Of a stretch of 64,000 bases of DNA, positions 47,945 to 59,555 are shown piece after piece. The position numbers were made by a program, and so were the translations under genes. The notes beneath the pieces were generated by a model. The model did not search any database. It was not told the origin of the DNA and was given only the letters and a program-made list of their open reading frames with translations. The stretch is from Schmidtea nova (Eukaryota). The stretch lies in assembly GCA_044892505.1 (NCBI GenBank), contig CM097882.1:405480001-405544000 (forward strand), in the 5' to 3' direction. The number at the start of each line of letters is the position of its first letter. The stretch's first letter is position 1.

Positions 47945-48149
47945 AGTAGGCAGTTATGTGGAGCATGAGTCATCGCCGAACAAAGGAAATGACGTCACCC
48001 CCCCGGGGTAAGAAAATTTTTATGACTCATCGGTATGACTCATCGCGATGACTCATCGGTATGACTCATCGATGACGTCATCGATGACTCATTTCAAATT
48101 TGAATTTTATGACGTCATCGATGACTCATTTCAAATTCAAATTTTAAAT

Positions 48150-49135
48150 TTGAATTTCCAAAGGTCAAATAAGGTCAAACCTTCAAACAAGGGTATCATT
48201 CGAAAGGTCTTTGAGAGGTGCACACAATGGTCATACCCTCGAAGGTGTATGGAGGGTCCTTAACCTTCAAAGGGTGCCAAACCTTCAACCTTTTTCAAAC
48301 CTTACAAGTTATATATCATTCGAAAGGCATTTGAGAGGTAAGTATGCTGGTCATACCCTCGAAGGTGTATGGTGGGTGCTCAACCTTCAAAGGGTGCCAA
48401 ACCTTCAACCTTTTCAAACCTTGTGTGTAATATATCAAACAAAAGGTAATTGAGATGTGCACACAATGGTCATATCCTTGAAGGTCTATGGTGTGTCCTT
48501 AACCTTCAAAGGGTGCAAAACCTTCAAATATTTTCAAACCTTACAAGTTATATATCATTCAAAAGGCATTTGAGAGGTAGGTATGTTGGTCATACCCTCG
48601 AAGGTGTATGGTGTGTCCTCAACCTTCAAAGGGTCTAAAACCTTCAAACCTTATAATATATACATCATTCGAAAGGTATTTGAGAGGTAGGTATGTTGGT
48701 CATACCCTCGAAGGTGTATGGTGGGTGCTCAACCTTCAAAGGGTGCCAAACCTTCAACTTTTTTCAAACCTTGTGTGTAATATATCAAACAAAAGGTAAT
48801 TGAGATGTGCACACAATGGTCATACCTACGAAGGTCTATGGTGGGTGCTCAACCTTAAAGGGGTCAAAAACCTTCAAAAACTTTTAAACATTACAAGTTA
48901 TATATCAAACAAAAGGTAATAGAGAGTTGAGTATGATGGTCAACCCTTGAAGGGTCCAAGGTTCAACATTTTTAAAACTATGTAATATATGTATCAAACA
49001 AAAGGTAATTGATAAATGAGTTTGATGGACATACCCTTGAAGGTGGATGGTCGACCCTCAAAGGGTCCAAGGTTCAAAACTATGTAATATTTGTATCAAA
49101 CAAAAGGTAATTAAAGTTGAGTATGATGGTCATAT
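48150..49135 (+). repeat. ~120-bp tandem array (~8 units) inside the family-B terminus
   Basis: Unit ATATCATTCGAAAGG..GGTCATACCCTCGAAGGTGTATGG..AACCTTCAAAGGG; only one unit is present at 59350-59440. Confidence 0.85.
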
Positions 49136-50394
49136 TCATGTGTGTATGTGTTGTAACACNNNNNNNNNNNNNNNNNNNNNNNNNNNNNNNNNNNNNNNNN
49201 NNNNNNNNNNNNNNNNNNNNNNNNNNNNNNNNNNNNNNNNNNNNNNNNNNNNNNNNNNNNNNNNNNNNNNNNNNNNNNNNNNNNNNNNNNNNNNNNNNNN
49301 NNNNNNNNNNNNNNNNNNNNNNNNNNNNNNNNNNNNNNNNNNNNNNNNNNNNNNNNNNNNNNGCTGCAGAAACATATGAATGCACAAAGTGATAATAATA
49401 ATGATANNNNNNNNNNNNNNNNNNNNNNNNNNNNNNNNNNNNNNNNNNNNNNNNNNNNNNNNNNNNNNNNNNNNNNNNNNNNNNNNNNNNNNNNNNNNNN
49501 NNNNNNNNNNNNNNNNNNNNNNNNNNNNNNNNNNNNNNNNNNNNNNNNNNNNNNNNNNNNNNNNNNNNNNNNNNNNNNNNNNNNNNNNNNNNNNNNNNNN
49601 NNNNNNNNNNNNNNNNNNNNNNNNNNNNNNNNNNNNNNNNNNNNNNNNNNNNNNNNNNNNNNNNNNNNNNNNNNNNNNNNNNNNNNNNNNNNNNNNNNNN
49701 NNNNNNNNNNNNNNNNNNNNNNNNNNNNNNNNNNNNNNNNNNNNNNNNNNNNNNNNNNNNNNNNNNNNNNNNNNNNNNNNNNNNNNNNNNNNNNNNNNNN
49801 NNNNNNNNNNNNNNNNNNNNNNNNNNNNNNNNNNNNNNNNNNNNNNNNNNNNNNNNNNNNNNNNNNNNNNNNNNNNNNNNNNNNNNNNNNNNNNNNNNNN
49901 NNNNNNNNNNNNNNNNNNNNNNNNNNNNNNNNNNNNNNNNNNNNNNNNNNNNNNNNNNNNNNNNNNNNNNNNNNNNNNNNNNNNNNNNNNNNNNNNNNNN
50001 NNNNNNNNNNNNNNNNNNNNNNNNNNNNNNNNNNNNNNNNNNNNNNNNNNNNNNNNNNNNNNNNNNNNNNNNNNNNNNNNNNNNNNNNNNNNNNNNNNNN
50101 NNNNNNNNNNNNNNNNNNNNNNNNNNNNNNNNNNNNNNNNNNNNNNNNNNNNNNNNNNNNNNNNNNNNNNNNNNNNNNNNNNNNNNNNNNNNNNNNNNNN
50201 NNNNNNNNNNNNNNNNNNNNNNNNNNNNNNNNNNNNNNNNNNNNNNNNNNNNNNNNNNNNNNNNNNNNNNNNNNNNNNNNNNNNNNNNNNNNNNNNNNNN
50301 NNNNNNNNNNNNNNNNNNNNNNNNNNNNNNNNNNNNNNNNNNNNNNNNNNNNNNNNNNNNNNNNNNNNNNNNNNNNNNNNNNNNNNNNNNNNNN

Positions 50395-50590
50395 AACTTT
50401 TTTAAACAAAGACATTGTAATGCTAAAACACTTTAACAATACATATGCAAGTTAACAAAGACATTGCAATACATATGCAAGTTAACAAAGACATTGCAAT
50501 GTTGATACAATTTAACAAAGACATGTATTGTTATCAAGCCAGGTTAACAAAGACATTGCAGTTGCAAGCCAAGTTAACAAAGACAAGATG
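50395..50590 (+). repeat. ~30-bp minisatellite TTAACAAAGACATTGCAAT (inverse copy at 44911-45350)
   Basis: Directly visible; borders the assembly gaps at both locations. Confidence 0.8.
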
Positions 50591-58200: not shown

Positions 58201-58583
58201 TTTCAAGTATGTAATGTATATTTCATATATTTCTGATATATTTGTACTATAATTTAAGAATAATTTGTGTGATTATCTCAATAGTATGATAATTTTTCAT
58301 GTATTTGTCATAGTGACAGAACATTTAGTAGCAGAACATTGCGAGCAGAACCCTAGTAGCAGAACCTATTCTGTGATGGTTTTATTGTGCAAAAGCTCAT
58401 TACTTGAACATATTTCTAACAATAAATATATTGTTACCGAATTTTCAATGTCCCTTATCGTCATTTCAATGTAACAGTTTAGCAAAACTTTCAATCATTG
58501 GTTGGTCAATAAAATGGTAGGTTATTAAATTGGTTGATTTTTGCAATATAAATACAACTTGTAAATAGTATTGATTGACGTAA

Positions 58584-59157
58584 ATGAATAAAGAAACAAA
58601 TAAAGAAGAGTTTTAAAAATATATATATTTAAATTAATTATTTTAAACTAGGTTACAGATAATTTCATTACTTTGGACAATTGAATCCAATCATTTTTAA
58701 TACTTGATGACCTTTTAACTTCGATTGAGAAATGCGATATCGACATTCTTTCAAAATTATTCAAATCCTTCAATAATAAATTAATTATTGGTTTAACAGA
58801 ATCATTCGGATATGATAAATCCATGATGAAATTATCCAGTTTTATTATGATTGTTAATGATATCGATTCTACTGAATTCAATTTGAATACCATTTTCTGG
58901 TCATGTATGGAATTTCGACTTGGAAAATATCGTACTATTATTCGAACTTTCATGCTGAATGTGGATATTTTAGAGGTAAATGTAACCAATAAATTGGAAG
59001 AAACCAAACAAAGATTACTCACGTGTTCAATATGTAATATCAATAGAGTTGGCATTTTATATTTACCTTTTGGACATGTCATTATTTGTTCAAAATGTAT
59101 AAAAAATATTGATAAGTGTGAATCTTGTGGTATTAATATTGATGAATATCATGTGAT
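58584..59157 (+). pseudogene. Mirror copy of the RING cargo gene, interrupted near its 3' end by the Polinton at 59158
   Basis: Same sequence as 50684-51267, including the TGA (58682-58684); diverges after EYHVI. Confidence 0.7.
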
Positions 59158-59555
59158 AGTAGGCAGTTATGTGCCCTCTGACTCATCATTATTACGTAAT
59201 TATTACGTAATTTATTACATAACAAAGGAATATTACGTAATCGGTGACCCCCCACCCCACCCCCACCCCCCCCCTTTTTTACACACACACAGACGATGAG
59301 TCATAAAATTTAAATTTGAATTTCCAAAGGTCAAATAAGGTCAAACCTTCAAACAAGGGTATCATTCGAAAGGTCTTGGAGAGGTCTATACAATGGTCAT
59401 ACCCTCGAAGGTGTATGGAGGGTCCTTAACCTTCAAGGGGTCAAAAACATAAAAAACATAAAATTTTACAAAACATTTTTTTCAAAAACACAAAGTGAGA
59501 ATTAATCAACATTTATTAATAAATACACATATATATGACAACAATGTTATTCCAA

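Follow-up and report, generated by a model that had tools for sequence, protein, structure and literature searches.

A near-identical inverted repeat next to a Polinton in Schmidtea nova: a candidate helper-dependent Polinton derivative

Features of the locus

A 64-kb stretch of the Schmidtea nova genome (assembly GCA_044892505.1, contig CM097882.1, positions 405,480,001–405,544,000), called the window hereafter and used for all coordinates, was analysed around a long inverted repeat. The repeat consists of two arms, each carrying a gene for a RING-domain protein, which enclose a short unique spacer. The left arm is preceded, across assembly gaps, by an element terminus, and the right arm ends at a Polinton that encodes a protein-primed polymerase (pPolB). 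A preliminary description had presented this arrangement as a Polinton-derived fold-back element. The window is AT-rich (mostly 20–35% GC) and is filled with remnants classed by their open reading frames (ORFs) as Gypsy-like, piggyBac-like and mariner-like. Six N gaps, located at repeats, point to a scaffolded short-read assembly, and the window reads as part of a scaffolded animal nuclear genome. An Rfam scan of 43000–64000 gave no matches, and no tRNAs were returned by the tRNA search (ARAGORN). The features are listed in Table 1.

Table 1. Features of the inverted repeat, its neighbours and its relatives in the 64-kb window
Feature	Position	Strand	Content or basis
Third relative	10560–13291		GTTCTG modules, RING 5′ part, low-complexity tract, different interior ORF
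Second relative	43910–45935	+	RING relic, tail, 30-bp array, one 120-bp unit, 6 AP-1-type motifs, AGTAGG terminus (− strand), in this order
Older AGTAG-starting repeat (element B) hosting the 47945 terminus	47592–47944	+	Aligns with 34929–35254
Candidate 6-bp target site CTTACA	47939–47944	+	Before the 47945 terminus
Left terminus	47945–48150	+	16-nt end, 7 AP-1-type and 3 CRE-type motifs
Array of ~120-bp units	48194–49159	+	9 units decaying inward; sequence comparison
Assembly gaps	49160–50394		N 49160–49362 (203), 44-bp island, N 49407–50394 (988)
30-bp array	50399–50590		Outer ends of this array and of its counterpart in the second relative match
Broken gene, helical domain and IAP-type RING, outward-pointing	50684–51267	−	Stop-free part 51166–50687
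Left arm (portion seen twice)	50693–54547	+	Self-BLAST, global alignment
GTTCTG modules (n = 4)	51440–51534, 53170–53270, 53860–53942, 54100–54194	+	A/C-rich low-complexity DNA between
Putative inward promoter	54223–54547	+	ATTGG boxes, ACGCGCG, TATATA, TCATT
Spacer, unique	54548–55304		757 bp, 20% GC
Predicted spacer gene	54554–54887	+	94 codons, one intron
Doubtful second unit	54962–55293	−	ATG 55293, 28 codons, (TA)29, AATAAA near 54962
Right arm, truncated within the final codons of the RING frame	55305–59158	−	Self-BLAST, global alignment
pPolB-bearing Polinton, left end	59158–64000	+	~300-bp terminal block, 147-amino-acid ORF, pPolB
ORF of 147 amino acids in the pPolB element	59999–59556	−	No convincing family match (Pfam/PHROGs, PDB sequences)
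pPolB with endonuclease VII domain	Extends past window end	−	Protein relatives

The inverted repeat and its borders

Comparison of the window with itself by BLAST revealed one dominant inverted repeat, 50693–54547 against 59158–55305, which aligned over 3,855 columns with 99.8% identity. Global alignment of the arms left seven differences, six substitutions and one 1-base indel, at left-arm positions 50858, 51729, 53516 (the indel), 53738, 54111, 54498 and 54512. The repeat of about 3.85 kb with few differences that had been described earlier could therefore be reproduced, as could the GTTCTG modules in each arm, of which there are four. The low-complexity arm DNA was considered as coding sequence and rejected, stops being present in all six frames with no conserved frame. 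The GTTCTG modules were considered as heat-shock elements and dropped on their spacing (14–15 bp, same orientation).

Both arms end inward at TCATTT, with a TATATA beginning 29 nt ahead of the TCATT, which agrees with the earlier statement that the arms stop at a TCATT about 30 nt past TATATA, save that they extend one base further. The putative inward promoter holds three ATTGG boxes within 40-bp repeats, ACGCGCG at 54335, TATATA at 54513 and TCATT at 54542. The evenly spaced ATTGG boxes and a CGCG-rich site (54223–54345) lie upstream of the inward TATA and may resemble promoters of the cell-cycle (NF-Y/E2F-type) kind. Across the 64 kb, the two strands together have approximately 17 distinct sites with the TATA-TCA(T/G)T spacing (25 overlapping matches); the arm border is unlikely to have met a TATA-initiator by position alone, the feature tested being one chosen after the fact. 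The innermost 49 bp contain two of the seven arm differences (p 0.017, corrected for the order statistic picked), consistent with less efficient copy correction near the border, and the central 1.8 kb of the arm has none (p 0.076).

The difference-free centre and the N gaps at repeats would both be expected if the assembly had placed a multi-copy arm twice around a unique spacer, or had taken the outer flanks from different copies. Such an artefact has little probability in our judgement. Both arms and the spacer are free of N, the whole of 50395–60978 is without a gap, four distinct junctions are present, and some of the seven differences lie beside each unique anchor. Fold-back artefacts of reads typically have a near-zero spacer, unlike the unique spacer of 757 bp seen here.

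The RING gene of the arms

The gene repeated in the arms matched the Pfam zf-C3HC4_3 and IAP RING domains. An in-frame stop (51169–51167, mirrored at 58682–58684) lies upstream of 160 stop-free codons, and a zinc-ligand position of the RING, kept in 11 of 12 aligned rows, is substituted; both lesions are shared by the two arms. The right-arm copy is in addition cut near its 3′ end by the terminus at 59158. Since the same lesions occur in both arms, these must have been duplicated or evened out after the gene had decayed. The preliminary description was thus right in placing a RING gene in each arm, but the gene is intact in neither, and arms bearing a functional gene are not borne out.

A HMMER scan of 1.84 billion representatives gave 63 matches to the RING protein, the best being 48% identical over 158 residues. 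About 11 of the 63 reach into the N-terminal part, and alignments were made from 11, then 21, of the matches, picked for this reach. In an earlier homologue search with the stop-free RING part, none of 25 candidates passed. Ten relatives were looked up and none bore an informative name, so the Polinton origin of the gene rests on its neighbours in the window. One of these relatives is encoded on a contig of 23.5 kb. The accessible text of the adintovirus paper (PMC8502044) contains no RING accessory gene.

The predicted structure of the protein (22 rows) was confident, with a predicted local distance difference test (pLDDT) value of 94.9, and consisted of a helical domain, a long helix and then the RING. 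Structure matches were confined to the RING, the all-helix N-terminal part having no Pfam or fold match, and the Atlas gave no usable match for the protein. A UBA or BIR domain, considered for the N-terminus, was not borne out, as the confident model matches only RING. Members of the IAP family combine BIR and RING; the arm gene has an IAP-type RING and no BIR domain.

The spacer and its predicted gene

The spacer (54548–55304) had no other match within the window. On its plus strand an ATG at 54554 opens a gene model with a GT-AG intron of 49 nt (54660–54708), a stop at 54885–54887 and an AATAAA at 54888. When dinucleotide shuffles were made with the ATG forced, 2 of 1000 attained its length of 94 codons. 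The predicted product has a basic stretch and a coiled-coil-like C-terminus. Exon 2 (58 amino acids), searched in place of the whole 94-codon product, gave no homologue candidate, and comparison of the exons with Pfam/PHROGs and PDB sequences gave nothing convincing. Judged from its sequence features, the plus-strand gene is credible.

The minus strand offers no comparable frame. The ATG at 55293 opens 53 codons, about a third of them formed by the (TA)29 run (55152–55209), and after this run no frame stays open for more than 19 codons. An ATG within about 15 nt of each border had been noted in the preliminary description. Both positions, 54554 (+) and 55293 (−), are correct, but 39% of the positions in 50693–59158 are followed by an ATG within 15 nt, and the minus-strand ATG therefore carries little weight. 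In favour of a second unit, a TATA lies 46 nt ahead of the ATG at 55293, and the TATA-to-ATG distance is 36–46 nt at the plus-strand spacer gene, the RING gene and the 147-amino-acid gene of the pPolB element. A two-way expression cassette, as had been proposed, is possible; it found no support, because only the plus strand has a credible gene and the minus-strand ATG is no better than chance.

The left terminus and the repeats behind it

The 16-nt terminus occurs in the window only at 47945 and 59158, exact at both places (2 matches against 0.25 expected, with up to 3 mismatches allowed), which confirms the earlier observation that the left arm is preceded, across gaps, by the terminus of the pPolB element. 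It follows CTTACA at 47945 and TGTGAT at 59158, and no second CTTACA was found behind any CCTACT in the window, the other copy being predicted to lie outside it. Of the AP-1-type and CRE-type motifs, the former are concentrated in three termini, which hold 15 of the 18 in the window. A block of 137 bp, 95.6% identical, is common to the left end and the pPolB element. The single unit of the pPolB element shows 94% identity to the first unit of the left array and 60–85% to the others. The 44-bp island between the gaps and the array end matched nothing informative. In the left arm, the stretch from the 30-bp array to the RING gene is without a gap.

The match between element B and 34929–35254 runs to the base before 47945 and then ends; judged by the copy at 34929, the 47945 end interrupts this older repeat directly after CTTACA. 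Element B was also considered as a long terminal repeat of the adjacent Gypsy piece and dropped: the duplicate leader at 43640–43871 lacks it, and the copy at 34929 stands alone. That leader and 47358–47589 are direct copies, 94% identical, of a Gypsy-like leader/gag start, each adjoining an AGTAG-family remnant. The second copy of element B (34929–35900) is followed by three diverged minus-strand repeats resembling by eye a tRNA B-box; no tRNA (ARAGORN) and no inverted end was found there. Element ends of the AGTAG type number four within 14 kb (45935, 47592, 47945 and 59158), with a further one at 34929. Two of them lie within another member of the family or within relatives of one another, which suggests an insertion bias, local or self-targeting.

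The pPolB element and its insertion into the right arm

The ORF entering from the window end is, by its protein relatives, a protein-primed polymerase with an endonuclease VII domain. Of 6,844 candidates, 1,138 were relatives, with identities of up to 59%, and PF03175 is present in many of them; the Pfam match of the ORF itself was only PF02945, below the cut-off. All 10 matches of ACGCGCG in the window fall in the arm promoters or upstream of the 147-amino-acid gene (0.23 expected); two 62-bp repeats rich in this motif were noted upstream of that ORF, at 60446–60585.

The terminus at 59158 interrupts the RING frame within its last codons. Because the left arm and the second relative both run on past this point, the pPolB element is taken as the intruder. 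With its clean terminus inside the RING frame it behaves as a later insertion, in agreement with the preliminary description, which had the right arm hit later by a relative.

Relatives within the window

The second relative carries a RING relic 82–83% identical to the arm gene. The order terminus, AP-1 cluster, 120-bp unit, 30-bp array and RING is the same in it and in the left end, and its section from array to terminus (45160–45935) has no gap. Since each covers one gap-free part, the second relative and the left arm together bridge the missing 1.2 kb by inference. The gap at 49160–50394 intervenes between terminus and arm, and only the order seen in the second relative bridges it. Between its array and its unit, the second relative also holds 25 bp similar to the inner units of the 120-bp array, a match that 5 of 500 shuffles equalled. 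With this bridge, the shared terminus, the 137-bp block, the AP-1 clusters and the ACGCGCG motif, the earlier claim that the arms are Polinton-derived found support, the arms belonging to a Polinton-family end.

A near-perfect hairpin of 108 bp (44179–44286; z −15 against shuffles), flanked by two TA runs, was observed in the second relative. Its position behind the RING frame corresponds to that of the pPolB element in the right arm, and it reads TATA...TCATT-ATG outward on both strands.

In the third relative, the RING 5′ part is 86% identical over 271 bp and the low-complexity tract 66%. An intact minus-strand ORF of 238 amino acids (12485–13291), beta-rich by eye, lies in its interior, with a TATA-TCATT site at 13452; no match was obtained in Pfam, PHROGs, PDB or the Atlas. 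Outward of its RING fragment, a degenerate repetitive tract (9400–11018) with recurring short peptide-like units on the minus strand is possibly a decayed repeat-protein gene. The window contains no second copy of the fold-back form, only these two diverged partial relatives.

Origin of the fold-back arrangement

The evidence leans towards a non-autonomous, helper-dependent member of the local Polinton family, which would be an inverted dimer of one element end, about 14 kb long with 6.6-kb arms (predicted arm 6,603 bp, predicted element 13,963 bp). Of the 6.6-kb terminal inverted repeat (TIR) described earlier, 3,855 bp are seen twice and the remainder is predicted. As in a non-autonomous Polinton, the terminal sequence is common with a pPolB-bearing element. 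The core genes of an autonomous Polinton (pPolB, retroviral-like integrase, capsid, ATPase and protease) were not found in arms or spacer, where no ORF exceeds 160 stop-free codons and Pfam recognised only the RING, the 1.2-kb gap lying outside view. The repeat seen twice is longer than the 100–1,500 bp of autonomous Polinton TIRs. In these respects the element works like a helper-dependent Polinton derivative.

From the arms, the spacer, the shared terminal signals, the absence of core genes and the insertion of the pPolB relative, as observed, we infer the following course. A truncated RING-bearing end of about 7.4 kb, with terminus, repeats, RING gene, modules, promoter and small gene, may have been the start. 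A second terminus would have been regained through copy-back or template switch during protein-primed replication. The switch may have taken place at the TCATT initiator, or the arms may later have been evened out up to it; the border would fall there because microhomology is provided by the shared promoter motif, and because a gene start lying beyond that motif is not overwritable. The product of about 13.96 kb would have two origins and two integration ends, at a length within the normal Polinton range, and a complete relative could therefore copy it, possibly package it, and integrate it at CTTACA. Insertion of the pPolB element into the right arm would have followed. The fold-back element would express no more than one clear cargo gene, the mirrored promoter giving convergent, partly antisense transcripts and not a designed second cassette.

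Several points weigh against this course. The right end lies past 64000, and no second terminus, target duplication or fold-back copy was found in the window. The overall inward skew of the arm differences was not significant (Kolmogorov–Smirnov p 0.086; mean p 0.058), and a short-read assembly of a near-perfect repeat would yield the same difference pattern. No name or context links the RING family to Polintons, and the visible 4.8 kb of the pPolB element has neither a GTTCTG module nor a RING gene. Similarity of the second relative to the inner TIR of the pPolB element was not above chance (40 of 500 shuffles), and the third relative has another interior with no inward promoter visible. The size argument is one of analogy, the helper capsid genes lying outside the window.

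Two further adverse points concern the gap before the left arm: its 1,235 bp are near the length of the 1,215-bp piece that precedes it, and the first unit of the left array matches the second relative less closely (79%) than it does the pPolB element (94%). Both would be accounted for if the 47945 end belonged to a separate small element unrelated to the arms, for example a palindrome of 2.4 kb, of which the mirror half had collapsed into the gap. This explanation has very little probability. Past the gap, the contig starts with the 30-bp array at its outer end; beyond this point the second relative continues for 566 bp, to a terminus of the same orientation as 47945. The gap would need to accommodate such an end together with the mirror half and the remaining part of element B.

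The main rival is a one-off chromosomal fold-back, that is, a recent local inverted duplication of a RING-bearing remnant which never moved and whose right arm never extended beyond 59158. It could have come from break repair or a replication template switch, perhaps triggered by the 59158 insertion. Arms 99.8% identical with the same gene lesions, and hence duplicated after decay, are what such an event would leave; so is a single occurrence in a window where four AGTAG-type ends are nested within 14 kb among Gypsy pieces. One spacer border shows natural promoter-gene continuity and the other reads as a junction, the second relative has the 108-bp hairpin at its matching site, and the rearrangement of host loci by Polinton copies is known, Polinton-driven inversions having been reported (PMC11414722). 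Yet a random breakpoint would have had to hit an initiator, one of about 17 sites of this kind in 64 kb, and the right arm is cut off precisely where a clean terminus interrupts an ORF, the pattern left by an insertion. We regard the one-off event as somewhat unlikely; if it is the true cause, the locus neatly illustrates how a transposon nest is rearranged and is of little wider interest.

The helper-dependent derivative may be extended to a Polinton satellite family that kept the helper's ends, enhancer-like modules and promoter, were kept at a packageable length of about 14 kb as inverted dimers, and carried small, exchangeable genes flanked by a pair of inward promoters; the window's three relatives would be members that differ in their interiors. 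This extension is considered improbable. If true, the dimers of helper-dependent adenovirus would have a parallel in nature, and size selection by a Polinton capsid would gain indirect evidence.

Comparison with known systems

The published systems are compared here as far as the accessible parts of the cited sources describe them. Polintons span 13–25 kb, with TIRs of 100–1,500 bp and target duplications of 5–8 bp (PMC10748475), and vertebrate Mavericks have TIRs of 46–1,447 bp and intact genes without introns (PMC8097293). Polintons of Pieris and Euchloe have TIRs of about 2 kb that carry hexon and protease genes (10.1101/2025.02.07.637071), and truncated endogenous mavirus-like elements regenerate TIRs, which reach 2.3 kb (PMC8547959). 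The preliminary description had put Polinton TIRs at usually hundreds of bp to about 1 kb; that upper limit has to be raised. In the literature searched, which left aside Repbase, the original 2006–2007 descriptions and the Pannagram preprint supplements, no Polinton derivative with arms above about 2.3 kb or with initiator-bounded arms was found. Repbase and the original descriptions reportedly include non-autonomous Polintons.

The present element resembles Polintons/Mavericks in the AG-starting terminus common with the adjacent pPolB element, the candidate 6-bp target site, the predicted length of 14 kb and the tandem repeats behind the terminus. It differs in lacking the core ORFs and in its arm length (3.85 kb seen, 6.6 kb predicted), and its predicted spacer gene has an intron, unlike the intact genes of vertebrate Mavericks. 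Cargo genes with introns are present in nematode Mavericks (10.1101/2022.07.12.499685). Genes are duplicated inside the TIRs in the Pieris and Euchloe elements as well, and polB-less polintons, which remain mobile (10.1101/2025.02.07.637071), share the absence of polB; those elements keep other core genes and a long interior, whereas here the predicted arms make up 95% of the element and the accessory gene is broken. Mavirus-like elements are alike in being short derivatives of a pPolB/integrase element with regained inverted ends, and unlike in being protist virophages with far shorter TIRs and no promoter-bounded arms in the accessible text.

Outside the Polintons, the ambisense densoviruses carry promoters in their inverted terminal repeats (PMC5978394, PMC12297876). 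As in Junonia coenia densovirus (JcDV; p9/p93), the putative promoters of both inverted repeats point inward and the poly(A) signals converge in the middle; this likeness is one of layout only, the spacer being too short for NS1/Rep or VP genes and free of such ORFs, the 47945 end no terminal hairpin, and the family ends being protein-primed. Helper-dependent adenovirus genomes that are undersized enter particles as dimers, both direct and inverted (PMC4189039), and the bidna-like Vesanto virus is segmented, with segments of 3.3–5.8 kb (PMC8363768). A segment of such a virus would be expected as a free linear molecule alongside a PolB segment. The likeness lies in helper-supplied replication, doubled undersized genomes and molecules sharing inverted ends; those are laboratory vectors or free viral segments, whereas the present case is an integrated copy known from sequence alone. 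Teratorn has long inverted repeats, and Pack-MULEs are described in the same source (PMC6431247).

The arms also recall Drosophila FB (Foldback) elements, MuDR and Pack-MULEs, with which the element shares long repetitive arms, a small middle, cargo between inverted repeats and inward promoters. Drosophila FB elements and MuDR/Pack-MULEs have long, internally repetitive arms, a small middle and cargo, and MuDR has inward TIR promoters. Foldback and Mutator-like elements have ends recognised by a DDE transposase and a target duplication of 9–11 bp. In contrast, the ends of the present element match the pPolB element and not a DDE-transposase family, and no such transposase is linked to it.

If the far end is confirmed, the inverted repeats would be about three times the longest found in print for a Polinton derivative and would take up 95% of the element. 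Genome data alone could then show whether Polinton ends are rebuilt by copy-back replication, the minimum-length retention of defective elements, as expected under Polinton packaging, could be tested, and a route for moving small intron-bearing genes would be indicated.

Other observations

An open frame of 161 codons on the minus strand (3–485), which extends past the window edge, had no match in Pfam; a signal-peptide-like start and leucine-rich-repeat-like spacing could be seen by eye. At 34025–34246, an imperfect palindrome of 222 bp (80%) is probably a miniature inverted-repeat transposable element.

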